NCBI GenBank assembly: GCA_010093705.1
Contig: MU006116.1
Span: forward strand, 99,424 to 163,423
Direction of reading: 5' to 3'
Source of the DNA: Patellaria atrata CBS 101060
Lineage: Eukaryota
Length of the DNA stretch: 64,000 nucleotides
Shown here one piece after another: positions 4,287 through 64,000 of this stretch (position 1 is the stretch's first letter; each line of letters begins with the position of its first letter). The notes below the pieces were generated by a model. The model was not told the origin of the DNA, did no database searches, and worked only from the letters and a program-made list of their open reading frames with translations. The position numbers and the translations under genes were made by a program.

Positions 4287-6065
4287 TTATCCCTCACTCT
4301 CCCCAATGGCCTGAATAATCCCATCCACGCACACAGTCCCTTGCGCCACATCTCCCATATCGATCCATCCACCCCAATCACAAACCATAAACCCACTCCC
4401 GTCCCTCAAGCACTCAACATCACCATTCCCCTCTCCCGTCACCACCGCGTTCGTGCTCCCACAGTCCCCGACCGGCCTGCTGCGCACGTATCTATCGTCT
4501 CTGAACCCGCCGCTCGCGGTCCCGTTGTAGCTGATGTAGGGCAGACACATCATGCCGTCAGCGACGACAGTGGGAGGGAGCGAGTAGGTCCAGGCGTAGG
4601 TGCTGGGGATGGAGGTATTGGCTATGGGGGGTTGCAGGGGCGTGGGGATGCAGGTTAGGAAGGTTGTGAGGGAGAGGCAGAGGAAGGTGCCCGGGACGCA
4701 GGGGAGGTAGGCTTCTAAGGGCGGAGTGGCGTAGGGGATGTTTGTGACGGGAATTGAAGGGGATGGCGTGGGGATGGAGGAGGTGGACGTCCAAGAAGAT
4801 GGATGTGATATTGAGGTTGGTGGCCAGAGGGTCATGGTGGTGACGCACTGGCTTGCGGAAGCCGGTGTGGTGGATGAAGTCCAGCTTGGGGTAAGCCAAG
4901 AGGAAGAGGTTTCGGATCTTGAGGTGGATTTCGATGAAGATGATCTTGTACTTGATGCTCCTAGGTCGACTGTTACAGTCGGGGCACATTGGCTCGTCGA
5001 TCTGGTGAGAGTTACGGTTACGGTTACAACTGGTATACAGCCGCTTGCCGATGAAGTTGTTATTGGTACGGCAGCTATACGGAGCTGTTGTAAGCCCGTT
5101 GGTTCATAGTCTTCCTCAGTATAAGTAGTCGACGGTTCTATGGAGGGTGTCCGATGTTCCATGGCTCCGATAGTTTCTAGGGCCCCTTGAACGTACGCTG
5201 ATAAACTTGCCACAGGAACAGGAACTTCGATTGCGGTGTAAGAAGGCTCAGGAATCACTGTGTATGTCTCCTGGTAGGTGATGGTAGTTTGTTCCGGTTC
5301 AATAGTACCTTCAGGTGCGAATGGATCACTTTGCTGGATGGTGCTGCCGGGAGCAGGCACTTCGCATTGGCCATCCGTGGCAGGAGACGCGCTACTCATT
5401 CCGTCTCCGTACACAACGTCATCGCCCGGGTGTGGGAAAACAGGGTTTAATCCTTCGAATGTGGAACAAGTGTTGATACCCCTTAAATTCGCAACCCAGA
5501 TGTTGGGCAAGTCGTCCATACTTTGTGCACGCTTCGCTAGTCGTCGTCCAGCGGAATTCTGTCCGACAATTTGGACCGCCGCGCAGTCCATATAGAACTC
5601 CCTATTTCCGACCTTATTCATCCATGTCCAAGCGAAGAGTGCAATCCCGGCTGGCGCATAGGACGGTACGGTAAAGGGATAACTTCCGGCCAGAGGGCAC
5701 CCACCGACAACGGACTTGATAACCTTGAATGTCTTGCCCCCGTCGTACGATAAAGACAGTTGACATGAACCACCATCATGCGTTGCTCCACCGAGGAATT
5801 GAGCGGTATATGTCGAGCCAGCTTGATATCTAGCCGTAGTACGTAGAGGAGAATCGAGATGATAACCTTTACAGGGAAAATTTGAACCATCGGCGCGTAG
5901 AGGCGACGTCATATCATAATCCTTCACGCCTCCCATATCTTGAGTATCGAGCGGACTGCGCAAAGGCATTGGATTGCTCATCTGGACATGGCCAGTAACG
6001 TGATCTGAGATTGACAATAGAACACATAGTGTACATAGGAAAGACTTCAATCTTCTTAAAGTCAT
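4287..6065 (-). CDS. Secreted AA11 lytic polysaccharide monooxygenase (chitin-active family) with S/T-rich linker and C-terminal Cys-rich modules
   Basis: Signal peptide followed by the predicted mature N-terminal His (VTG|HVQMSNP). Motifs FPCKG, GGATHDGGSCQLSLSYD, GGCP and FAWTWMNKVGNREFYMDCA are AA11-typical. The C-terminal FMVCDWGGWIDMGDVAQGTVC resembles X278/CBM19-like modules. Confidence 0.88.
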   Translation of the reverse strand: MTLRRLKSFLCTLCVLLSISDHVTGHVQMSNPMPLRSPLDTQDMGGVKDYDMTSPLRADGSNFPCKGYHLDSPLRTTARYQAGSTYTAQFLGGATHDGGSCQLSLSYDGGKTFKVIKSVVGGCPLAGSYPFTVPSYAPAGIALFAWTWMNKVGNREFYMDCAAVQIVGQNSAGRRLAKRAQSMDDLPNIWVANLRGINTCSTFEGLNPVFPHPGDDVVYGDGMSSASPATDGQCEVPAPGSTIQQSDPFAPEGTIEPEQTTITYQETYTVIPEPSYTAIEVPVPVASLSAYVQGALETIGAMEHRTPSIEPSTTYTEEDYEPTGLQQLRIAAVPITTSSASGCIPVVTVTVTLTRSTSQCAPTVTVDLGASSTRSSSSKSTSRSETSSSWLTPSWTSSTTPASASQCVTTMTLWPPTSISHPSSWTSTSSIPTPSPSIPVTNIPYATPPLEAYLPCVPGTFLCLSLTTFLTCIPTPLQPPIANTSIPSTYAWTYSLPPTVVADGMMCLPYISYNGTASGGFRDDRYVRSRPVGDCGSTNAVVTGEGNGDVECLRDGSGFMVCDWGGWIDMGDVAQGTVCVDGIIQAIGESEG

Positions 6066-6742
6066 GGTGGGAGGCGAAGGTTCAAGATGAGGAAAGGAAG
6101 AGAAAAATCATTTATATAAGGTAGGAAAAGTTGATACGCCTATAGAGGCTGACAAATCCCTTGCATAGGCATGGAACCAGTGAAGGTCATTCTGATTTGG
6201 GGTTCATGCAACGCGCAAATTTCTCTGGATGGCCAAAACCGGTCGCTAATTTGGTTGGATAGAGTTAAATAATACTATACTTCTGGTTAGTGGCTGAATG
6301 TGTCTTACGATGATAGAGCGAGCATTCCTCACGAGCCGCGTTGTGGAATGTGATCGCAAAAACAACTCAGGACAGACCTAACCCTTCGCCTCGACTATAA
6401 TAATAATGAGAGGAGCGCCTCATTGTCACTAGTGCACAAATAAAGATTATGCATCAGCGTATTTGATATCTATGTATGAATTCACGTCCTTTAATTCATC
6501 AAGATATATAAGCTCAATTCTGTACTAAACTTGAATGTAGAGTCATAAGTCATATATCCGTGTCGATCCTGGGTGGTATATCTGGAAAACTTGCGGGGAC
6601 GTGCTCTAGTTTCGAGGTGTAGCATACTCTCTATGTACGGTTGTAGAAATCGATAGTTAAGTTAGTCTGAAAGATACAATTGCTGCTATACAATAGGCGT
6701 ATGAAATGCCCAAATCCTTTGTTCTAAAGTGATGAAAGTGAT

Positions 6743-7656
6743 TTACAGAGTATCTTTGAGGAGCTTGTTCAGCTTCGCCATCTTCGCAGACACACTGAGA
6801 TCGATCGTTCGATCACCGATCTCAACAATGAGACCTCCACGGATATCCGGGTTAACCTTGAACAATGTTAGCAATAGAGAGTTTCAATTTGTCGAAAAAG
6901 CGTTGAATAACAAATACCTTTGGCACGACTTTCAGCTTCTTCCCTTGCCCTACATATGAGGATTTAGAAATAGCGCTCTCCAGCCTACTGAGAACTCTGT
7001 TTTCGAGTGGCTAAGATGAAAATCAGTATCCAATGCTTGTTGTTTGGTCGCTCTCCACATTTCCTGGAAAACATACAGCGGCGCTGGTTACAACTAACTC
7101 CACCTCGCCCTTCGAAGCACCCATAAGCACTCCAAATTTCTCGCAGACTGGTTCCAAGACACCTAATCGGTTGTTTTCCGCCAATGTAGTCAAGAAGTTT
7201 TTGACAATGTCACCTTTGTCTGCCCCACCGGTATGTTTTGCAAGCTCGGCAATAATCTGTTTCTTGTCGTCCACGGTAAGGGTAGGCGCCTTTAGAACGC
7301 TTTGTAGCTTCGCATCTTTCTTGAACACAGAGGACAAGTTATCCAATGCTTTTGAGACCGAATCTAGGGCGGAAGACTTGGCGGCAGCAGTGTACTGTAA
7401 AAGCCTCAAATCAGCCTGTGTGCTCATCGCTGCATTCGTAAAGAAGCTCCGAATCGCGCTTTTATCCTAAATCAAATCGAGTTGCACATACTAGAGCGCT
7501 GGCGTAAGTCCCATCTACCCCATAAAGAGCTACCGGCGGTCGAGTGGATGCAGAGGAAGCTGGTTGAGCATAGGTCCTCATAGCGGTATGAGAAGCAATT
7601 GAGGGGCGAAGAGCGGTAGACCGCACGGCCCGGGTAACTACTCGACTTGATAGCAT
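6743..7656 (-). CDS. ATP5: Mitochondrial ATP synthase subunit 5 (OSCP/delta)
   Basis: Four exons: 7656-7492, 7394-7077, 7010-6918, 6856-6743, all GT..AG. Protein reads mito presequence, then PPVALYGVDGTYASALY, NFLTTLAENNRLG, and VNPDIRGGLIVEIGDRTIDLSVSAKMAKLNKLL. Confidence 0.96.
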
Positions 7657-7953
7657 TTTACGAGGAAGGAGAAGATGGAGACACGATTAATTCAATGAAA
7701 GGAATGGGGGAAGCTCTCGGACTGTTGTTTCGACGTTCAGTTGGAGGAAGTTACTATATTAAAACAGGTAAGCGTCTTGGCGAATCTCAACTTCAACTAC
7801 ATCCCATGTGAGGAATTTATGATGTGATGAACGTAGTATGTATTTCCTATATTTGTTCTGACAGAACACTAGCTGAAATACGATTTCTGATGTGTAAACA
7901 ACTTTTTCCTAAAATATGTCCATTTTCTTACGAACATAGTCCAACATTCTTCA

Positions 7954-8980
7954 CTATTTCGAATGTTCAGATTCAGCTTGCAGCTCAACCTCTGAATAGC
8001 ACGTCTTAATCCAACTGTAAAACAATCCTAAGGCGTCCGTGCCTTCAATCCCGCTATCATGTGCAAATAACACAGCATCCAAAATGATACGCTCCAATTT
8101 TTGCAAGACTTCCGCATCGTATCTATCTGTGATCATCCCTTTGAATGGAGCATCAGAAGCATCCTGAGATTGTCCTGCTCTTTGCACATCTTCACGCGGA
8201 ATATCATCACTCTCGTTTCGGCACACAATTGGATCCTTGACTTTGTGATTATCCTGATATGCATCTCTGCTTGGTCCTGGTGAGGAAGTGTTGAAATCCG
8301 TGATCCTTGTAAGAATCTGCTCGATCTGACTGACATGCAGAGTTTCATTGATGTTCCGGTCGAAATCTAGGTGCATATACGTATTCGCATTCTGTACCGC
8401 GGAGGAAGGATCCAAACCTAGGGCAAATTCGGCGTCAAGGAAGTTTTGAGGTAGATACTCGTAAGTCCCAGTATTCTCCCTCGGCATGTTCTCGTTAGAT
8501 TGATAAAACTGACCGGCAGTGTTAAAGGTTTGAGGACCAGGAGAACTTGATCCGCTTCTGCTAGCAGCTCGAATCGCCGTTTTCTCCCTTTTCCTTCTCT
8601 TCGGCGAAGTCTCTTGTTCCTCCTCAGTATCTGCTTTTCTCTTCCTTGGATTCTTGACGCGGACTTGGCCTACTCGCCATTCACTAGTGATAGTTAGCCA
8701 TAATTCTTCAAGATTGGAATCTTGTTCAGTGAACTTACTAATTGGCCTTATAACCCTTTCTGGCCTTCCTAACCGTCAAATGAGCGTAGTCTAGCAGACC
8801 GCCCTCACAATGCCTCTCTCTAACATGTGCCCTCAAATGGCCGGCCTGCTTGTATTTGTGATTCCTTCGTTCTCCGGTGCAGAAATAGCAGTATCGTTCG
8901 CAACGATCAATATCGATCTCGGTAGGGCTGGTTTTCGGCGGCCATGTATGGTCATGAGTTGGATCTCTGTCGCAAGGCAT
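7954..8980 (-). CDS. Uncharacterised putative zinc-finger nuclear protein (paralogue A, ~323 aa)
   Basis: Exon 1 is 8980-8739 (MPCDRDPTHDHTWP...RCERYCYFC...HLRAHVRERH). Intron GTAAGT..CTAAC..TAG. Exon 2 (8683-7954) joins in frame to the 177-aa ORF. Basic NLS-like stretches RKRK and KRRKREK. Confidence 0.75.
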
Positions 8981-9419
8981 GTTGAGGATCTCAAAGGACA
9001 AGGTAATGATACTAGATATAACAGAGGATTCGCTGCAGAATAAGTACTCGAATGAACTTCGGTGGTCGAAAAGGACGTAGAACGATGCTCAACAACTTAG
9101 AGTAATAAATTGATCGGAGGAAGATATTTGGCACCTGGCCGTCTATGATTCCAGGCGAAAATATGTTACAAAGGGGATATGGTAGAAAAGATAAGTTGAC
9201 CAGCAACTGACAAAGACGATGGACTGATCGACTCTCAGAGCCAGGATATTGAATTGAAAAAGGCGTTCGCGCTGCAGCGAAGAAGATACTTCAACGATTG
9301 AATAGAAAAAAAAGACGAAGGAAGTATCGAAAAGATGTTAACGTGAGACTAGAGATAGAAGAAGTAAATGTAAGATATTTACAGAAGGATAAAACCCACG
9401 GACATTACAACGGCCATTG

Positions 9420-9513
9420 CTATTGTTGCAATTGGTATACAATAGGTGAGCTTGTGTGCTTTCCGTGCAACAATAAGACGCATCGTGGTTCTATTGTCGT
9501 CGAACGACAATAG
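9420..9513. promoter_or_regulatory. Two inverted CTATTGT/ACAATAG dyads plus AACAAT (HMG-box-like sites)
   Basis: CTATTGT 9420-9426 paired with ACAATAG 9439-9445; AACAAT 9469-9474; perfect inverted repeat CTATTGTCGT-cga-ACGACAATAG at 9491-9513. Confidence 0.4.
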
Positions 9514-10140
9514 CCCTGAACCGTGATTTTGATGCCTGTTCTCGTGCACGTGGCAGGTTCTAAGCTAATCCATTGTGAGCTCAGAATGAGGGAGTTGGAT
9601 TGGAAGCCTTAGTCAGGTGACTTAGCATTTTGTCTGAGATAACAGAGATTATAGAAACTGAGGTAAATGTATCTTGACCTAGGTAGGTGGCTGGAGCTTT
9701 GACTGACGTCACAGGAGCTTGAAACCATTTTCTCTTGCTTTACGAACCCAACCGGAAACAACGACTATCTATCCACCGATTAAGCTTGATCACTAGTCTC
9801 TCGAATAGTCGAAGTCGGATACCTTGCCCAGAATAGCCTGTGATATCCAGAAAACGACCAAAAGAGCTTTGAAAGGCGAGCTAGTTCATTTCTTTTAGGG
9901 GCCCCATATGCGAGTACTATGGCGAGTATATCCTAATGATGTTCCGTAATCAATATGTCCAAAAACCAGCGTTGAGGAATGCCTATGTGATAGTGTTCAT
10001 ATGAACGATACCTTCCGCAGACCGAACAAGTAATCGTGGCACCTCGAAATCGCTGGAAACAGGACGCTAGACCGTCTTCGTAACCAATGTGTAGACGTCG
10101 ATACGCCTAAAGGCCTACCAGTCAAATTCAAGAACTCGGC

Positions 10141-10500
10141 GGAAATAACGCATTATTCTCTTTAACATGAGGAAGGGATGCTCAATTCCAGCATGAAAAA
10201 TATAATTAAACTATCTCTATCGATGAGCTCATCCAACAGGCGAAATACGCAAACTCCAGCGGAAAGAAGCATTGCTCTCTTCTACATGAGAAACCGATGC
10301 TACGCTCTGGCACCCGACATAAAATCCATAATTGAACTTTCTCCATCGACGAACCTTCCAAGAGGCGAAAGACGCAGGGCCCAGCGGAAACAAGTACTAT
10401 ATTCTTCTATATGAGGAATAGATACTACATTCCGGCATGAAAACCATAATTAAACCATATCTATCGACGAACGTTCTAGGAGGCGAAACTTGCAGAAATC
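10141..10500. repeat. Degenerate tandem repeat, 3 copies of ~120-125 bp
   Basis: Units start at 10141, 10261 and 10386 with GGAAA, and each carries ..CATGAG/TATGAG..GATRCT..CATRAAA..ATAATTRAAC..ATCGAYGA..AGGCGAAA..GCA. Confidence 0.85.
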
Positions 10501-11073
10501 ATATAAATGTTTCCTATGAACTTGATAATCATGTTGTGATCTCACTCAATAAATCTCCTCTCTGTCTGAATTGGAAGGGCATGGTCAATCTGGCGAGAGC
10601 AATGGGTGTACCGCACAGGAAGATCCCGAGCTCCTTGCGGGGGATTTTCTCTGGACTTGGCCCGTGGACCTAGTAGATGTAGATTGAACTAGAAGGATTT
10701 CGAAGTTCTGCGATTATGGGTCTTCCTTATGACCGTTGCCCTGGTAGAAGAAATCAAGATTACTGAACGTATACTTTACCCGCGTGTGGTGTGAATGGTG
10801 AAGGCCTTCTGAAAATTAAGACAGAATAGTTGAAAGGGGTGCGGCATGGACGTGGCTAGATCAATCGCTGGCTGCTCGTTCAATAATATGTTAGGTTTTC
10901 ACCTACCGCTTCGCGAAATCTCCTCTCTCCCTTTGGTCCTGTTTGTCCTTTCGCACCATGCCCATGTCCAACGAATGTCAATGTCTCTTCTAGGTCTTCC
11001 AGGTCTCGTGTGAGATATCTGTTGGAATATTTCTTTTCTTTACTTTTGCCACCCTGTATTCCGACGTGTCGAA

Positions 11074-13307
11074 ATGCCTTGTTGCAACCCATCTCACCAG
11101 CACATCTGGCCCACTTCAGGCTATTTTCGAACATCTCGTTGCGAGCGAAGCTGTGGATATTGTTACGAAGAGTTCACTTCAATCTATCTCCTTCGCCAGC
11201 ATGTAAGGTTGGTCCATGTAAAAACCGAGGGCATGGATATCCAAGTACAAGATGTAAACACGCATGCAAGCAAGAAAGACCCGTGAGTCCACCGACTTGC
11301 CCATTCGTGAATATAGTAGTTCTCCATTGACTGATACTAATCTTCAGCAGAGTTGGTCGTTCATTCGCAGGCTTCAATCTTGACAACGAATGGACACTGA
11401 GGAATAGCTTCGTGGCGCGGACCGAAGTACAGGAAACTAACTGGTTGATGCAGGAGAATTTCGATATATCAGGAGCATTCACTGGTAATCCGTCGAGCTT
11501 CTTTCCAACAACGGAGTATAGCCCATCATTGGTGTGCAATCCAACGCAAGAGTGTGTCAACCCCTCCGCTTTCTCCTTCGACAATTATCTTATCCCACTT
11601 TTGCAAATTCAAAATTTTCCAATGACTTGTGAAGGAACTACAATACCACTACAGTACAATATGTCACAAGCGCAGAACTTTCTTCCTTACGACAATTCCC
11701 ATGGCATGTGTTTGTCAACAATGAGCATGACGCCAAGTGCGTACACTCAGCAGTCATCCCAAGAATCTTCTCAGAATCTCAATTTCCCTGCTCCTGGCAA
11801 TGACTATGGATTAGTTAAAGAAGCGCCGATGACGACATACTTTTCACGAGTACCAGTCACTTCCATGTACCAATTTGGTCACGCGGTTCAGGGGGATTCA
11901 CAATATCAGACAACGCACCCTTTGGAACCTTACGGGCAAAGTCACCTGGTCAATTCGAATTTCACTCCAGGCAACAATACTCAGTATCAACTACTCATGT
12001 TTCCACAAACAAGGGTACCCATAGACAGTTTGTCACGACCTAGGACGTCTCTATTGCGTAGGGACAATGCCATCCAACCGCAAAATTCGATTGACCACTT
12101 TAGACGCCTTCAACAAGGCAATGTATCTTCTTTAAAGCAGCAAACGTTTGGGTATCCCGGGGACCAGGCACTGCTGGGGAACACTATGTTTCAGCAAAAG
12201 CCAGACAAGAACGCATATGGCCTCATCGGACCACAGACAGGGAACATTTTGGGTCAGGCCGGAGATCCTATGACAAATTTCGACTTGAATTCTATGGAAT
12301 GCAGCTTTGAAGGAATCGAAAACAAGTTTAACAGTACGGAACGCTGTCAAGAGTTTGGAGGTTACTTTCATGCTCAACCTCAAGAACAAACTGATTTCAG
12401 CTTTCAAGGACAAGATCAGACCTTCGACACAACACAATGGCAGGATCTTACAATTAACCCACAAAAACTTCTCCAAGAACATAATAATGAGCTTAGTGCT
12501 TGGAACTTTTGTAGTCCGCAAGGAGTACACCCTAGCGGATTAGGCTTCTCACCTCAATCACCCTTCGTGGGACAAGTTGTGTCCCCAATCACAGCTTATT
12601 TGAACAATATTCCATATACACCCCCGAAAATTCCATCAGTCGGACAACTCCTTGCCAAGTCGCATTGCACGCACTCAGTTAGTTCACCAAACACCCAGAG
12701 GTCCTTCAACCTCGCTGGATCACAAACGCGCTCTCAGTCTATAATTGATTACACGAGCCTCAACGCCGCTCAGAGGGCGATAATTCGAGATATGACACCG
12801 TCCAAACCGACTGCTGACCCATATACCCACATCGAACCCGCAGCTGCATACACAGGGTATCTTCACCCAGACAATTCAACAGCGTTCACGACACGCTTGA
12901 CAACAGTCTCCAACATTCCAGGAGGCGAACAATCGTTTTCCCATTCCCGTAGGAACTTCTCCCGAACTGTGTGGTTTCTCATCCGCGACGCTAGAGAGTC
13001 TGGTTTGCATGTCGCTGATATCAAACGTTTACTATACCTTGGGGTTCAAATCGTAAGCGAGGTTGCTATACCTCAATATTTCACCAAGCTCGTGGATGAT
13101 CCCTATTTCTTGTATGGACGACCTGCCGGTGCGACGGATGCCTCCTCTTCTGCGAAACAAGATGTGAAAATGTGGGATGCGGCATGGGATATGAGGATGG
13201 GGCTTAGGGCTGCAGTTGACAGAGGACGGGCTAGGGGAATGGAGGATAAGGATATGAAAGATTGCTTAGGTGCAATTATCATAGTCGGAAAGAATCGGAA
13301 GAAGTAG
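11074..13307 (+). CDS. Uncharacterised putative zinc-finger protein (paralogue B, ~722 aa) with long Q/S/P/N-rich region
   Basis: Exon 1 is 11074-11282 (MPCCNPSHQHIWP...RCERSCGYC...LLRQHVRLVH). Intron GTGAGT..CTAAT..CAG (11283-11347; tandem CAGCAG acceptor). Exon 2 (11348-13307) is in frame with the 631-aa ORF. Confidence 0.78.
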
Positions 13308-13389
13308 ACATACATGGTTGGAGTCATCCAGTTAGCAAGATCTATAACTTACATGGACGGTTCAAAAGTATGAGATAAGTGTGGACGAT

Positions 13390-13415
13390 GTTGGTTGTTG
13401 GTTGTTGGTTGTTGG
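13390..13415. repeat. Short (GTTGGTT)n minisatellite in the 3' flank
   Basis: gttggttgttggttgttggttgttgg. Confidence 0.7.
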
Positions 13416-13944
13416 ACTCAAATTGGACGGCGACAAAAATGTTCGTTGTTGTTATTGGGTTGATGTGCTAGTGTTATGAACTGGACACTACGATTTTTCG
13501 GATCTTAGACATCGGGTGAGCGACGTACCAAAAGAAGAATACGTAGGATTATGTTCTTCCATTAAGAGGGAGTCTTAAGTATCGTAACACACGATCGTAT
13601 CAAGCAATGTAGTGTTGTGATGCCTTTCTCACACGCTTGCTTAGATTCATTTCAAAATCTGCATAGTACGTGGCACAATAAAATTGAGCAGGTTATACGT
13701 AAGAAATATGACAATAGCTGTAAGTAGTCGTAATATTGAAGTGGCTTCTCTGCTAACAGTAGAAATTCTGATCAACTGCTTCTGTCTCTTCGCAAATCCT
13801 TCCACCACCACAATCATGGCAGCATTTCACAATATTCTGCTGGCTATGATCTATCCATAACATTTCCATTGAACAGCGACATACTATTTGTATAGTATTA
13901 CCCGCGTCAACCCTGGGGTTCCAAGAGCTCTTCTCTTTGGTTGA

Positions 13945-14630
13945 TTAAATTATAGCCTCTCCCATATGTTCGCCTTCGAAGCCATACGCCCTTAACTTCT
14001 TAGACCGGGCCTTTTCTTTCCTCTTTCGGTCTTCTGCCTCTTTCTTCTGAAGCGTAAAGACCCTGTCTACAGACGCTTCCTGAAATGCCTCCGGAATGTA
14101 GTCGTCCTTATCAAGGTCCTGCAAATTCACAATGAGCCAACAATAGATATCCCTGACACGATGAGACATACAATCTCTCCCAAGAGGAGAACATTTTCCC
14201 CTCGAACGATGTATATGCCTCGTGGAATGTCCGCGTACAGATTCTGAACAAATATTCTTTCGATAGTATCTTGGAGGACAAGGTTTGCTGTAAACGGTTG
14301 GAAATTAGGTATATGAGATTCCATCGCGTAAATATGTCAGTCGTACCAAACTGATCCCAGCTGCGGAGAACTCCAATTATTTTCTTCCCATCGCGCAATG
14401 ACACCATTAGCTTTTCTGAGGGTTGAAAGCGGTCCAAGGTCAGCCTTGACTCTTATCAACTCATGCTATAAGGAGTAGACCGTTGCGAACTCACTGTCAG
14501 TTAAATCCAGCAGCTGGGCCGCTGTTGTGAACATCTGGGGTGGAAGTTGAGGAACCATTGGTGGGACTGGTTGATGTTTCACTGGTTGCTCGCCCGCCGG
14601 CGGCGGATCATGTATTGAAAGACTTTCCAT
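13945..14630 (-). CDS. LSM1: Sm-like protein Lsm1 (mRNA decapping activator)
   Basis: Four exons: 14630-14495, 14415-14347, 14287-14172, 14118-13945. Protein reads [47 protein letters not shown]...RGIYIVRGENVLLLGEIDLDKDD plus the Lsm1-type C-terminal helix. Confidence 0.95.
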
Positions 14631-59270: not shown

Positions 59271-60981
59271 TTACTTGAATAGCTCAATTGCGTCTAGAAC
59301 CTTAACGTTTAAATTAGCATCAATCGGCAAGAACAGGAACAAAAGTCAACTTACAAAGTTCGGACTCAAAAATCTATCACCTGAACTTCCTGACAATGCA
59401 TTAATAGTAATCGTATTTTGTCCATTTACCAGGGTCCCTGATGGAATTGAAAAGTCATATGTCTCCCCAAAGCCTCGATACGCTCCTCTGGTGACACCGC
59501 GCGAATCGATCTTTGTAGGCGCGCCTGGATTAGAGGGATTATAAGAGTTGATCGTTACCGACGGTCGCGCTCCAGCAAAGGAAAGAGTCGTCCCGACGCG
59601 CAGAGTAGCCGCACCAGTTTGGGACGCCGTCAATGAAAATTTGATCGTAAAGGGACTGTTGACATTCTTGAAAAGTGCCATAGGAACATCGTTAAGAGAG
59701 CCGGAGCCAACCGTGTATGTTAGGGGACCCCAACTTGACATGTGGCTGTCACTAGGATGCATACGGAGCTGTTTATCTGCATTACGAAAACTTTTTGGCT
59801 GACCGTCCCATTCACCAATCTGCAAAATGGTATTTCGAGATTCGTTCGAAGCTGAAATGTCTGAAGTAACCGTTGTGCCTGCGGAAACCGAAACAGATTT
59901 TGAAGCTATCTTGTATTCTCCTTGGTACAATACTTGTGTGTATTGGCCTGGCTTCATGAATGGAGATGTAAAAGAGTTACCCGAAGTGTATGCCCAATAT
60001 TGGGCATTGGAGTTGTACCAGTGTACAACCCCTTGAAGGCCGCTTCCAACACCGGATGCTGTCCCCTTCACGGTACCGCGGGCGGAGTTCGCGACATATC
60101 CGGAGATTCCCAAGCTGCTAAAGAATGAAGTATCTAGAGTTTTCCCATTCGGCCTTCCAGAGCGCGAGAATGACATGGCGTACGGACCATGCAGACCCAT
60201 ACGGTACGACTCCGTCTGTACGTGACCGGAATTCATATAGAAATACAGTGCCGTCATATCACCACCGTTGTTGGTGTTGATATCTCGGAAGAAGGGACCT
60301 CCAGAAGAACTCTCGTAGGATTGTGGGGGGATCAGCATGCAGACATTGATAGCATCGTTATCCCGGTAAACACAGTGGGTATTGTCGTCAATGAAACGTT
60401 CACTAGAATAGAACTTGCTGCGTGTTTGTCCATTGACGACAAATACATCAGACCCTTCCACGGTGGATGAAGAGTCTCTGGTGGTAGAGACCGCTCCGAA
60501 GGGATACTCTAATGGAAGTTTGGAAGATTGAAGGCGGGCGATATACCGAAGCTCTCCAACGCTTGGTTCGGTGGTGATGTATGTTGCCATATAAACCGTT
60601 GCTTCTCCCGACCTGACGACATAGTAATGTGTCAAAGTCGACGTTGTGCACGTAATTTTGGCTATGTTCACTGTGGATGGTTTTATTATTATCAAACCTC
60701 AAAGATCATTATTAAAAGGACGTACAGCTGACGATACTAGAGGAGACACTGGCAGAGCCAAGTCCGGATCCAATGTGAGATCCTTGGTTGGAATATTGGA
60801 ATTCCTCGCCCCTGTACTTGATAGAAGTGATATCACAGTTTGATTTACTTACTGTTATCACGAGGGGATTCTCGGACCCGGCATCGACCACAAATGAGGA
60901 GGATGTTGAAGTGACACCGAATGCAGCTAGGACAGTTGAAGAGAATGCGAATGCACATAGTAAAGAGCTTTTGAGCAACAT
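59271..60981 (-). CDS. rglA: Rhamnogalacturonan lyase A (PL4)
   Basis: Signal peptide then AFGVT; motifs [38 protein letters not shown] and DSRGVTRG. Three exons; ends VLDAIELFK* at 59271. Confidence 0.93.
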
Positions 60982-63141
60982 CTTGGGCAATCACCATTGA
61001 CTCTCAGCGATATACGATTGAAGAGAAGAAGAGGAAGCCACTCCTTATAACGAACACATTTTCGCTATGGATGTTTAAAAACAACTAGTCTTCAGCAATA
61101 CCTTTCCTTTCCTGAACTTAGGCAAGCTCCAGGCACGACGGAGCCAGTGTAACACGTTTCACGTAGCAAAATCATTCCAAAGTAGCTGCACATGGATAAG
61201 AGCCAGCTTATGACAATCAGGATCGATTTCAACAAGGATTTTTATTATCATTGCGAAGGAAAGCCAGGAATTCAACGGTGGAAGTTATGTCTTCTATCAT
61301 TATTACAAGGGAAACATAGATATTCATCGGTGGTGGTTGAGATTTTGGGAGGCGTATTCGCCATAGTGGAGGAATAATAGTCGGGGATAGCGGATATGAA
61401 ACAGCTAGATTGCATTGCTCACTTGGTGTGGGGAACCTTGGCTGTCCTTTGACTTTCCCATGTCCTTAAGGTAATCTGAACAATTCTAATCCGGTCTAAT
61501 CTGTTGAAATACTTAGTATTGTTGTACTTCGTTATTGACGACGGTTAACTCGGGACAAGAATGACATGAGACGATTGGATTGGATTGAGTTACGGAGTAT
61601 TCTCAAGCCCAACTTGCTCGCACAGCGGTTTTCTCCATCTGTCCAAACTCTAAAGGCAGCTTGTAGTGTATGTGTTCATCGCTCGAGTTGCACTTTCAGT
61701 TGTGGTTCATGGTATGAACCAGTACGAGTCTAGCCTTATAATAAGGATCTGAAAAGTTGATTTCATTGCGCCATGCCGGAAGCGGTAATAGTAATCCCAT
61801 GTCAGAAGCATGTCGTTCAAGATTGTGTGCTAAGCGTAGTTGCACCGTTTTCAACCTAGAAGTTCTTCCGAATTGGATCGATAGAGTCAGTAGAACTATG
61901 ACAACACTTGAGGAGGGCTTGAGATGCGCCGTGCGGATACCTTACGCAGAGTCAGAGCGCTTTACCGAGGGCGTCCAATCATCGAGTTTACAAAGACATT
62001 AAAAGCGATATCTAATCTCTTCGGAAGCGTTTGTCTTCAAAATAATACTGTCTTGGTGCGTTTGCATGTATACCTCGGATGCTGGAGATGACTCGTTGGT
62101 GGACGGGTCGTCAACAAAATCCAACCAGGCTGCGACGGTATCACGGCTGGTGGACAAATCATGTTTAGATCCTCGAGATCAGTTGTTTCTCTCTCCATAT
62201 ACGAAGTGTCGAAAGTCATCTTAAACGCTAGTGTAGTACTTTGTACAATACGTGTATTTCTCTGTGCGAGGATAAAGAACACCAACGTCTGCGCGCGATA
62301 TGGCTGAGATCCACCAAAACTCGACATCCAATTTTGAATGATAGATAGCCGTTGACATATCTTCCCTAAAGTATGTCACACACCACATTGTAATTCTTGA
62401 GTTCGTCCCACTCCTGGGTGGTACTATATTTGTCCTGATGCTCTTACCCTCCCTCTTTATTTTCTGCATTTCAATTGTAATATTGACCGGTACGTTGGTG
62501 ATCCGCAGAGGAGGTGGATGTATTCTCGATACCGTAGGGCGTGGACTTTTGAAATCGATCAAGGTTGATAGAGAAAGACTTTATTGTAACTCAGAAAAAA
62601 AAAGAAGACAGGTTGAAGGCAAGCGTAGCCGAGAGTTTTCCCGCCAAATCGCCGATCATTGCCCTCGTTTCCTTGGCCTTTTTGCAGCCAAAAGTCCAAA
62701 ACTGGTTCTGCCCTGTATCTCATGGCGTTGCTTTTATCCTATTTGGGGCAATTTTATACAATTTCTGCCCTCGGTTCTGCAAGCGTGACGGAATTTTGGG
62801 GAAGGGTATAAGAATTCTCACGGAGGAGTAGTTACTTGGAACAAAAAAGGAATTTCCCATATTCTAACGACTTTTTCACAGTTCTGCCTAACCCGAAGTC
62901 CCAAACTCAACCCCCCCCCCCAAACCCCCTCCCCCTTACCTTAGTTCCAGCAGCAAGGGCACCAAACTTTCCCTCACCGGGTGCCCACCGTCCAGTGCTC
63001 TCCCGTCCCCGCCGCTCCCCGTCTGCGACTCTCGTACGACTTCTTGTTCCCAAGTTCCCAACCCTTCGGTCTGACCTGTAAACAGTGTCATACCGTATTT
63101 CTTGTCAATCTTTTCTCCATCCTCGTAAGCTGTCGGCACCA

Positions 63142-64000
63142 ATGACAAAAGAAGCCGATGTGGATGTGGCAGTGGCAGTCGACTGGGGTCTACTCTTGAG
63201 CCACACACCCGTACCTACCCTAGTGCTCGACGAGTCTTTTTGCATACTAAGCGCCTCTAAAAGCTATATCGCCCTGTCCAAGGCGACAAGCAATATCTTG
63301 ATAGGTACTAACATCCACGACTCCTCGTTAGACACGCAACAAGACCAAGGACCAAACAATCTTCTATTACCGACCGTCGACGCGGTCCGAACAGCTGTCA
63401 AAGAGGCCATCAGGGCTAAAACAGTCTATGTCCACCCCGATATCGAATCTCAGGACGAGCACGTCTACAGTATCCGCGCGATACCAATCTACAATGACGA
63501 CGATAGACTTTGCTACGTCAAAGTCGAGGTGGAGAACACGACTAAAGAATTCCAGAGAAAACAAGAACTAAATCAGCGTTTGTCTACGAGCGAGACTTTC
63601 CGCATCTTGGTCGAAACGGTCAAGGACTATGCCATCTTCATGCTCGACACCAAAGGGAATGTTTCAACATGGAATACTGGTGCCGAATTGCTGAAGGGTT
63701 TTGCTCCAAGTGACATCATCGGTCGTCACTTCTCGAACTTTTACGGTGATGAGGATCGCAAGGCTAGAAAACCATGGATAGAACTGGAGGTCGCTCTGCA
63801 AGATGGTCGCGTCGAGGATGAGGGATGGCGCTATAGAAAGGACGGGACCCGTTTTTGGGCCAACGTTATCTTGACTCCAGTGTATAGAAATGGCACACTT
63901 ATTGGCTTTAGTAAAGTCACCCGCGACCTGACAGAAAGAAAGGCGGCAGAAGCCCGTCTCGCTGCGGCCTACGAAGAGTCATCGAAATTAAAGTCTGAAT
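63142..64000 (+). CDS. tcsA: PAS-PAC hybrid histidine kinase, TcsA/Fos-1 (group IV)-like; 5' part only, truncated by the window end
   Basis: Open frame from ATG 63142 to the edge, absent from the ORF track because no stop is reached. ETFRILVETVKDYAIFMLD..WNTGAE..HFSNFY..EDEGWRYRKDGTRFWANV..KVTRDLTERKAAE..SKLKSE ends just before the expected H-box. Confidence 0.88.
   Translation, partial: MTKEADVDVAVAVDWGLLLSHTPVPTLVLDESFCILSASKSYIALSKATSNILIGTNIHDSSLDTQQDQGPNNLLLPTVDAVRTAVKEAIRAKTVYVHPDIESQDEHVYSIRAIPIYNDDDRLCYVKVEVENTTKEFQRKQELNQRLSTSETFRILVETVKDYAIFMLDTKGNVSTWNTGAELLKGFAPSDIIGRHFSNFYGDEDRKARKPWIELEVALQDGRVEDEGWRYRKDGTRFWANVILTPVYRNGTLIGFSKVTRDLTERKAAEARLAAAYEESSKLKSE

Follow-up and report, generated by a model that had tools for sequence, protein, structure and literature searches.

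Several described zinc fingers are comparable to the module that is the subject of this study, which occupies the first 60 or so residues of the protein and is here called the MPC module. Classical C2H2 fingers of the Kruppel/TFIIIA type (PF00096, PF13894) resemble its distal part, CxxC...LRxHVxxxH, which is predicted to form a hairpin and a helix. BED fingers (PF02892) are CCHH domains with a conserved aromatic residue or Trp upstream of CxxC, and such a residue is found in the MPC module as well. The Ascomycota family DUF7896, or 'Key lime pathogenicity protein' (KLAP1, PF25438), comprises proteins of fungi that are small and carry a C2H2/BED-like finger. GAGA factor, finally, has one C2H2 finger with basic regions flanking it on both sides, a combination that is possibly enough for specific DNA binding. 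It is comparable in this respect to one of the two proteins described below (protein A), but GAGA factor lacks an N-terminal Cys/His extension and has no sequence relationship to the MPC module.

The complete module has the form Met-Pro-Cys-x4-5-His-x-His-x-Trp-Pro...Gly-x-Leu-x-Ile-x2-Cys-Glu-x2-Cys-x2-Cys...Leu-Arg-x-His-Val-x3-His. In contrast to the classical C2H2 type, it is a single finger without an array, it is tied to the first residue of the protein, and the finger is always preceded by an extension, some 25 conserved residues long (MPC..HxHxWP..G.L.I..CE), which contributes four extra ligand-type residues.

Two genes encoding such modules, A and B, lie in the window that we analysed, 64,000 nucleotides of contig MU006116.1 from Patellaria atrata CBS 101060 (Dothideomycetes). 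As the first-pass annotation had it, they are transcribed divergently, head-to-head, A from the reverse and B from the forward strand, with about 2.1 kb from ATG to ATG (Table 1). Both exon-1 frames are open from the ATG and are followed by canonical donor, branch and acceptor sites. Removal of the gene A intron at the proposed junction, 8739/8683, reproduces the 323-aa GenBank protein M501DRAFT_1061548 letter for letter, and the model of this gene can be taken as real. The junction proposed for gene B, 11282/11348, is likewise borne out by a phase 2 intron with all its signals; the acceptor is a tandem CAGCAG, which allows exon 2 to start either at 11348 or at 11351, and the GenBank model uses the later site. 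That model (668 aa) is without the zinc module because its start is placed at Met54 (11233). The module is nevertheless in frame with the annotated exon, and no stop separates the two. The description of the genes as unannotated was thus mistaken: GenBank has models for both, that of B missing the module.

Table 1. Features of genes A and B and of the spacer between them (positions in the window)
Feature	Position	Strand	Details or basis
Gene A exon 1	8739..8980	-	242 nt, 80 codons + 2 nt; ATG at 8980
Gene A zinc module	8810-8980	-	residues 1-57 of exon 1 product
Gene A intron	8684..8738	-	55 nt, phase 2; 5' GTAAGT, branch site GCTAAC, 3' TAG
Gene A exon 2	7954..8683	-	coding 8683..7957, stop 7956..7954
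Spacer between A and B start codons	8981..11073		2093 bp
Dyad 1, CTATTGT-N12-ACAATAG	9420..9445		motif count vs shuffles
Dyad 2, CTATTGT-N9-ACAATAG	9491..9513		motif count vs shuffles
Three diverged tandem units, ~120 bp each	10113..10495		repeat comparison
Gene B exon 1	11074..11282	+	209 nt, 69 codons + 2 nt; ATG at 11074
Gene B zinc module	11074-11217	+	residues 1-48 of exon 1 product
Gene B intron	11283..11347	+	phase 2; GTGAGT, branch site TACTAAT, 3' CAG
Gene B exon 2	11348..13307	+	stop 13305..13307

The common Cys/His module, beginning MPC in both proteins, is firmly supported. BLASTP aligns A and B with 22/64 identities (E 3e-8), and the Smith-Waterman score is 77, a value reached by none of 5000 shuffles (25.7 +/- 4.9). 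The ligand-type residues and the Trp are C3, H9, H11, W13, C27, C31, C34, H52 and H57 in A, and C3, H8, H10, W12, C23, C27, C30, H43 and H48 in B. The broader claim of a common domain architecture holds for this N-terminal part and is not supported beyond it, as BLASTP, shuffles and profiles detect no significant likeness between the exon 2 products or the C-termini, nor a dimerisation motif common to A and B. The similar helical motif that had been proposed at the two C-termini gives a best BLASTP E of 2.7, its score is matched by 401/2000 shuffles of the tails, and profiles lend it no support; the 'EW' motif said to follow both introns is 1 residue past the intron in A and 13-14 residues past it in B. 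Downstream of the module, A has the basic, NLS-like clusters that had been noted (RKARK, RKRK and KRRKR, at residues 71, 94 and 109), a middle part that is acidic and of low complexity, and a helix-like C-terminal stretch. The long Q/S/P/N-rich region ascribed to B is also there, about 520 aa with 44% Q+S+P+N+T, followed by some 130 charged and hydrophobic residues at the C-terminus, where KNRKK is the only clear NLS of this protein. Searches with either exon 2 product found no homologue other than the product itself.

We searched 1.84 billion proteins with a profile made from the two exon-1 peptides, as had been suggested, and found 99 representatives at E<=1e-3, 15 of them at E<=1e-10; at the 50% identity level the family thus has 99 clusters or more. 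Most of the matches align from residue 1, nearly all begin with Met-Pro-Cys and keep the eight Cys/His positions, and those modelled with an upstream start usually still have an internal Met-Pro-Cys. Over 100 module rows the eight positions are occupied by the expected residue in 94 (C), 93 (H), 93 (H), 91 (C), 99 (C), 100 (C), 96 (H) and 89 (H) sequences; Trp is present in all 100, and the initiator Met, Pro and Cys in 80, 72 and 94, respectively. A strict regular expression for the module is matched by 68/100 sequences, including A and B, both of which have the initiator Met-Pro-Cys, the eight Cys/His residues and the Trp, and match the family profile. When A and B were left out and an HMM was made from 36 other members, A scored 72.5 bits (E 2e-21) and B 63.5 bits (E 1e-18) against it; since it was the A+B profile that had retrieved these 36 in the first place, the independence of this test is incomplete. 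Scanned over the 1631 six-frame ORFs of the window, the HMM matches A and B from the proposed ATG onwards in each case and finds no third copy (next best E 3.5).

Every member that carries a name is a 'hypothetical protein' from Dothideomycetes, and no Pfam family covers the module. The family is widespread in this lineage, has no characterised member, and has never been described. A and B share 34% identity with one another, against 40-53% with members found in other orders, and each is thus nearer to the proteins of other species than to its paralogue in the window; by this comparison they are old paralogues of this unnamed family in their N-terminal module, as the idea of an old duplication required. 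In the family tree, which uses 71 columns, A is placed with an SH-aLRT of 89, and the position of B is unresolved. It is extremely improbable that all this is an artefact, i.e. a chance likeness of Cys/His-rich peptides or a pair of unexpressed exon-1 frames: the omission of the module from the GenBank model of B would fit such a view, which is strongly disfavoured by the shuffles, by the same eight positions being kept in 99 homologues, and by the open frames, splice sites and in-frame continuation described above.

The distal half of the module, CxxC...HxxxxH, resembles a classical C2H2 beta-beta-alpha finger, judging from the ligand pattern and from predicted structures. Its spacing is canonical in B (C-x2-C-x12-H-x4-H), whereas A has 17 residues in place of 12 (C-x2-C-x17-H-x4-H). 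AlphaFold2 models of the modules (mean pLDDT 82.0 for A and 82.8 for B) consist, in this half, of strands or a hairpin and then a helix bearing the two His, with pLDDT of about 90. Structural matches are all weak (Z<=2.8, Foldseek E>=1.3), and most are to DNA-bound C2H2 fingers: 13/20 of the VIA matches (Z 2.0-2.8) are C2H2 fingers, the best Foldseek match is ZNF217 on DNA (rmsd 0.9, 27 columns, E 1.3), and GAGA-DNA (1yui) is matched with rmsd 0.7 over 25 columns (E 4.7). Compared with PDB sequences, the family profile finds ZFY (E 0.008) and GLI (E 0.024), at positions 26-56 only. The proximal half (C..HxHxWP..C) matches nothing known.

Neither A nor B reaches the Pfam cut-off of a known finger family. 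For the C2H2 models, B scores 22.4 bits against a cut-off of 27 and 17.9 against 25.2, A has no match at E<=1, and just 4/38 short members reach even that level. DUF7896 is matched at E<=1 by neither A nor B, and by one of the 38 members (E 0.012); a language-model comparison ranks DUF7896/KLAP1 as a look-alike of A (score 0.83), which is a lead only. The zf-BED model has no match at E<=1 in A, in B or in the 38 short members, and among 50 long members one, P0064, stands exactly at the cut-off.

The BED-like hit raises the question of a mobile-element origin, in which a hAT-type transposase would have supplied the module as its BED-like finger, and an element inserted between ATP5 and LSM1 would have left the pair behind as a remnant. 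The family is indeed multi-copy, confined to one lineage and prone to local duplicates; P0064 reaches the zf-BED cut-off (20.6 bits), P0067 is labelled as a BED-type domain protein in UniRef, and the Trp upstream of CxxC is a BED feature. This origin is nonetheless very improbable, since none of 50 long members scanned contains a transposase or hAT domain, no short member matches zf-BED, the 64 kb hold just two copies of the module, no terminal repeats were found flanking A and B, and the GC content of the locus is ordinary.

The family is probably a variant of C2H2 zinc-finger proteins, its members being putative nuclear DNA-binding regulators. For the locus as a whole we lean towards the view that A and B are old paralogues with such a role that arose by an ancient local inverted duplication, which would be the simplest source of the head-to-head layout; the parts behind the module would have diverged fast after the duplication. 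Zinc would be bound by the distal finger, and the conservation of the proximal ligand-type residues (C3, H9, H11 and C27 in A) suggests that they may hold a second zinc, buttressing the finger. A DNA context is suggested because the Zymoseptoria tritici member P0019 combines the module with two HMG boxes (E 1.3e-33) and because A has basic clusters. A would be the short form, with its NLS-like clusters directly behind the module, and B the long form, in which the Q/S/P/N/T-rich region, of the activation-domain kind, is followed by an orphan C-terminal domain; both are predicted to act in the nucleus.

A different function, in which the module does not bind DNA and is a zinc-stabilised cap for binding protein or RNA or for regulation, followed by fast-evolving disordered tails, is unlikely, if worth keeping in mind. 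Met-Pro-Cys would then be a possible conditional signal for degradation or modification. The start of the module at the first residue in the majority of the 99 proteins and the usual internal Met-Pro-Cys where the start is upstream agree with this, as do the presence of one finger only and the orphan, low-complexity tails of the members. The HMG boxes of P0019, however, the basic stretches located behind the module, in A as in many other members, and the fact that the nearest matches in sequence and structure are DNA-binding C2H2 fingers argue against it. So do the internal second or third copies of the module in P0008, P0039 and P0064, which indicate that the N-terminal position is not obligatory.

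As to the preferred account of A and B as nuclear DNA-binding regulators, several observations run against it: B has no clear NLS apart from KNRKK, the Pfam C2H2 cut-offs are missed, and the spacer of the A finger is 17 residues long. A lone C2H2 finger also seldom binds DNA specifically by itself.

Some of these elements can be combined into a bolder proposal, which is improbable, that the module is a new two-zinc DNA-binding domain invented in Dothideomycetes and that its bearers are zinc- or redox-gated factors forming competing long/short pairs. Cys3 would be the first ligand, beside an N-terminal proline exposed upon removal of the initiator Met. With zinc bound, the N-terminus would be tucked in; shortage of zinc or oxidation of the cysteine would free it for recognition as a proline N-degron. 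Such degrons are handled by the GID/CTLH pathway in yeast. Growth of the family would proceed through local duplications, inverted or tandem, that yield long/short pairs (A and B; 407 and 272 aa in Phyllosticta), and in each pair the short form and the long activator would compete for identical sites in a common promoter.

A further reading is that A and B form a maintained two-gene module, with B as an activator and A as its short antagonist or heterodimer partner, co-regulated or self-regulating through the spacer. This idea is speculative, and we regard it as doubtful. In its favour are the head-to-head orientation, the 2.09-kb common spacer and the same DNA-binding-type module in a long and a short form. 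The spacer contains no noteworthy ORF and matches nothing in Rfam, but its two CTATTGT...ACAATAG dyads, which had been put forward as HMG-like and would be candidate HMG-box sites, are non-random (0 expected in 100 shuffles), and the claimed repeat of about 120 bp, though unreported by TRF, is present in three diverged copies with 62-78% identity (D1, three copies at 62-74% and spacing 119/125; D2, two copies at 78%). A regulatory link may run through the spacer. In four strains of Phyllosticta capitalensis, moreover, P0024 and P0052, also a long and a short form (407 and 272 aa), seem to be encoded side by side, judging from consecutive GenBank accessions and same-length contigs; pairing therefore appears not to be confined to A and B, and the refuting condition that homologues are never paired does not apply. 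These two proteins, however, are sisters in the tree, with 60% identity over 124 aa, which points to a separate duplication younger than that of A and B, so that it does not exemplify the conservation of an ancient pair. The three paralogues of Piedraia hortae are on three separate contigs, and no dimerisation motif common to A and B was found.

Major pathogens of crops belong to the Dothideomycetes (Zymoseptoria, Cercospora, Pseudocercospora, Elsinoe, Phyllosticta), as do extremotolerant black yeasts. A family of at least 99 clusters whose eight-ligand N-terminal module is sharply conserved, yet which lacks both a Pfam model and a characterised member, amounts to a blind spot in the catalogues of Dothideomycete transcription factors. 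Once the module is defined, a family model can be built and truncated gene models such as that of B corrected, and studies of DNA binding and knock-outs in tractable relatives would have something specific to aim at. Unless A and B are shown to be co-regulated or to compete with each other, the pair as such is no more than a modest curiosity.

The neighbourhood of the pair is unremarkable. The 64-kb window contains ordinary housekeeping and metabolic genes, and none of the 21 large ORFs scanned is of the MAT type or belongs to a cluster, so that the suggested tie to sexual development receives no support. Of the two flanking genes that had been named, LSM1 is matched weakly, its LSM domain, scored on a fragment of an exon, giving E 0.0059 and missing the cut-off; ATP5 is confirmed by its OSCP/ATP5 domain (E 3.3e-21).

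The two head-to-head genes, A on the minus strand and B on the plus strand, probably encode paralogous nuclear regulators of an undescribed Dothideomycetes family. In their shared N-terminal module, a Cys/His region of about 60 residues that opens with Met-Pro-Cys (MPC), a C2H2 finger appears to be joined by a second zinc site, and the pair would go back to an old inverted duplication. What gives the locus its value is the definition of this family, together with a corrected B model, more than the A/B pair as such.

Proteins of the window match Patellaria atrata CBS 101060 (Dothideomycetes, order Patellariales) in databases, and in two sequencing runs, both of DNA, a single contig per run spans the stretch with no joints and no differences. 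The first-pass annotation had proposed two divergent genes about 2.1 kb apart, each with one phase-2 intron, and this layout holds (Table; the ATG codons are 2093 bp apart). It had also called the genes unannotated, which is incorrect: GenBank carries both. The spliced product of A, of 323 aa as proposed, is identical to hypothetical protein M501DRAFT_1061548. The GenBank model of B, M501DRAFT_1061549 (668 aa), has this intron, spliced to the second acceptor, and starts at Met54, and therefore lacks the zinc module. The longer first-pass model of 722 aa is the better one, because the match to the family profile begins exactly at the upstream ATG. The tandem acceptor of the B intron is of the NAGNAG type (CAGCAG, window 11345-11351), so that the two models also differ by one Arg codon; both splice forms may be produced.

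Features of the two genes and their spacer (window coordinates)
Feature	Position	Strand	Remarks
Gene A, ATG and exon 1	8980..8739	minus	242 nt, hence phase-2 intron
Gene A, intron	8738..8684	minus	55 nt; 5' GTAAGT, branch site GCTAAC, 3' TAG
Gene A, exon 2	8683..7957	minus	followed by stop
Gene B, ATG and exon 1	11074..11282	plus	209 nt, phase 2
Gene B, intron	from 11283	plus	5' GTGAGT, branch site TACTAAT, tandem CAGCAG acceptor
Gene B, exon 2	11348 (or 11351)..13304	plus	
Repeat in spacer	10113-10495		three diverged units of ~120 bp

That the two modules are homologous is clear from direct comparison. The exon-1 peptides share 22 of 64 residues (BLASTP E 3e-8), and their Smith-Waterman score of 77 was reached by none of 5000 shuffles (25.7 +/- 4.9, largest 53), which bears out both the common Cys/His module and the expectation that its similarity would exceed shuffled controls. 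A profile of the two peptides, a search suggested in the first-pass annotation, was run against 1.84 billion representative proteins; 99 passed E<=1e-3 and 15 passed E<=1e-10, and in most the match starts at the first residue. A word-index search with the family alignment in longer mode, where the candidate list was crowded, found 3 proteins. The eight ligand-type positions are conserved in 94, 93, 93, 91, 99, 100, 96 and 89 of 100 aligned module rows, Trp is present in all 100, Glu after the fourth ligand position in 96, and Pro2 in 72. A 36-member HMM built without A and B, whose members were originally picked up by the A+B profile and which is thus not fully independent, gives A 72.5 bits and B 63.5 bits, and found no third copy in the 64-kb window. 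The single locus retrieved from metagenome contigs (L001) was rejected as a member, its 7.2-bit match being partial and confined to the C2H2 half.

Many of the matches are only 60-80 aa long, and we read them as gene calls that comprise exon 1 only. Seven such calls (in the numbering of representative family clusters, P0011, P0014, P0018, P0030, P0051, P0053 and P0099) end exactly at a conserved Trp, as would be explained by a phase-2 intron within TGG, followed by GTAAG. This hints that the intron position may be conserved across the family, near that of A and B.

The first reading did not recognize the family, and no Pfam entry spans the module. A has no match at E<=1 and B has only C2H2 matches below threshold. 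Among 38 short members, four touch zf-C2H2 and one touches DUF7896 at E<=1; in 50 long members no Pfam family covers the N-terminal module, save for P0064 at the zf-BED cut-off. In P0039, P0008 and P0064 the module is present internally in two or three copies, so it works away from the N-terminus too; in P0039 these copies receive ordinary C2H2 matches. The 808-aa P0019 of Zymoseptoria tritici carries two HMG boxes downstream of its MPC module. Thirty clusters were looked up, 26 of which were named, with labels that are hypothetical, uncharacterised, or automatic ('C2H2-type', 'BED-type', 'HMG box'). Their genera are Hortaea, Zymoseptoria, Aureobasidium, Cercospora, Pseudocercospora, Zasmidium, Piedraia, Friedmanniomyces, Neophaeotheca, Peltaster, Saxophila, Elsinoe/Sphaceloma, Phyllosticta, Saccharata and Aulographum, all of which we take to be Dothideomycetes (the taxonomy tool was applied to Phyllosticta alone); none of the 26 is from Pleosporales. 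A transposon origin of the family, to which the BED-type label and the P0064 match might be thought to point, is very improbable, given that none of the 50 long members carries a transposase or hAT domain and none of the 38 short ones matches zf-BED at E<=1. Among the papers listed in text searches, nothing relevant was found on C2H2 or lineage-specific zinc fingers of Dothideomycetes, a nameless family being one that escapes text search, and the items on Patellaria atrata concerned taxonomy or genomics.

The distal half of the module is probably a C2H2-type finger, judging by profile, model and structure matches taken together. Against PDB sequences the family profile matches ZFY (E 0.008) and GLI (E 0.024), both confined to profile positions 26-56. 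Confident AF2 models based on the family alignment (pLDDT 82.0 and pTM 0.68 for A, 82.8 and 0.66 for B) have short strands and then a helix with both His. The structure matches are weak, as expected of so small a domain: the A model gave no rows in Foldseek against PDB and one row in the wide VIA search (Z 2.0), and the B model gave 20 VIA rows (Z 2.0-2.8), 13 of them C2H2 fingers, its best Foldseek row being ZNF217 on DNA (weak, E 1.3; rmsd 0.9 over 27 columns). No counterpart of the proximal 25 residues (MPC..HxHxWP..G.L.I..C) was found in sequence or structure searches; since their C, H, H and C match the finger ligands in conservation, they probably form a second zinc site. On the most likely reading, a lone C2H2 finger would be reinforced by this second, N-terminal zinc site, with basic or low-complexity tails behind it. 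A module that does not bind DNA is rather unlikely; the single finger would fit it, and the DNA-binding C2H2 fingers among the closest matches, such as ZNF217, speak against it.

Outside the module the two proteins are not significantly alike. The exon-2 products align at best at E 2.3, a score reached by 72 of 300 shuffles. The similar helical motif claimed for both C-termini was rejected as unsupported: a helix-Gly-helix pattern, 'helix-x-G-x3-(D/E)-h-x3-h', can be seen by eye near the C-terminus of A, B and several members, but the tails of A and B align at E 2.7, with 401 of 2000 shuffles as high, a phmmer search with the tails gave no match better than E 0.28, and the iterated tail profile joined only P0024, P0034, P0043 and P0075, all from Phyllosticta, with A at E 2.2 and B absent. 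The 'EW' said to follow the intron is in place in A, one residue past it, but lies 13-14 residues past it in B. Word-index searches with exon 2 retrieved only the query itself, for A among 450 candidates and for B among 3963; in the ESM Atlas A had leads only, all <0.9, and the C-terminal part of B had no usable match. A segment near the C-terminus of B, KMWDAAWDMRMGLRAAV (residues ~620-645 of the 668-aa model, window 12,9xx-13,2xx), weakly resembles the family finger helix 'W.FAWFLRRHV' (E 0.7-3 against eight family members); this could be a chance likeness or the remains of a second module that has decayed.

The compositional contrast drawn earlier is real. Three basic clusters, RKARK (71), RKRK (94) and KRRKR (109), are present in A, and the first 520 residues of the B exon-2 product consist to 44% of Q+S+P+N+T, the last ~130 being charged and hydrophobic. 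The proposed two-gene module, such as an activator with its antagonist, is unlikely: no conserved ancient pair emerged among the homologues. Complex prediction with residues 495-668 of B and 225-323 of A scored 0.01 and gave no verdict for or against an interaction. Identity between A and B is 34%, whereas A reaches 45-53% with several other members and B 40-50% with others. The tree, built on 71 columns, places A with the Phyllosticta group (P0024, P0034, P0052, P0043, P0075 and some others) at SH-aLRT 89, the position of B being unsupported; this points to an old duplication or to fast evolution of B. An inverted duplication of such age would have left the head-to-head layout behind. Recurrence of pairs was seen once. 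In four strains of Phyllosticta capitalensis, the GenBank accessions of P0024 (407 aa) and P0052 (272 aa) follow each other directly, on equally long contigs, and a Logan contig of a single length holds fragments of both, so we take them to be adjacent genes. Their first 124 aa are 60% identical, the remainder is unalike, and the two are sisters in the tree, which points to a younger, independent local duplication, again with a long and a short form. Three paralogues of Piedraia hortae are each on a contig of their own. The general picture is of a family that duplicates locally, with rapidly diverging tails.

The spacer contains the expected threefold repeat, its units diverged (Table), and two dyads (9420-9513), 440-530 bp upstream of the A ATG, formed by four copies of CTATTGT within 94 bp (N12 and N9; none in 100 shuffles), where the whole window has 16 copies against 7.4 expected. 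Their ACAAT core is reminiscent of HMG/Sox sites. Rfam gave nothing over window 7000-14500, and the GC content is unremarkable. As to the flanking genes, ATP5 is clear (OSCP/ATP5 domain, E 3.3e-21), whereas the LSM domain expected of LSM1, on an exon fragment, is weak (E 0.0059). The 21 other large ORFs scanned include genes for a bromodomain protein, an aminotransferase, GET2, a GMC oxidoreductase, an FAD monooxygenase, ADH, a PL4 lyase and a PAS protein; none provides a mating-type or metabolite-cluster context, and among such ordinary neighbours the suggested tie to sexual development finds no support.

Several minor features were seen in the window. Just 3' of the B stop there is a short (TTGG/TTGT)n microsatellite (13391-13416), to which a separate contig of run X1, 31 nt long, maps. 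A 606-codon open frame at 4287-6107 (minus strand), rich in Ser/Thr/Pro, with a start resembling a signal peptide and without a Pfam match, looks like a gene for a secreted or cell-wall protein. The polysaccharide lyase family 4 (rhamnogalacturonan lyase) ORF at 59349-60698 (minus strand) is complete, and the PAS-domain protein at 63082-63999 (plus strand) runs past the window end.
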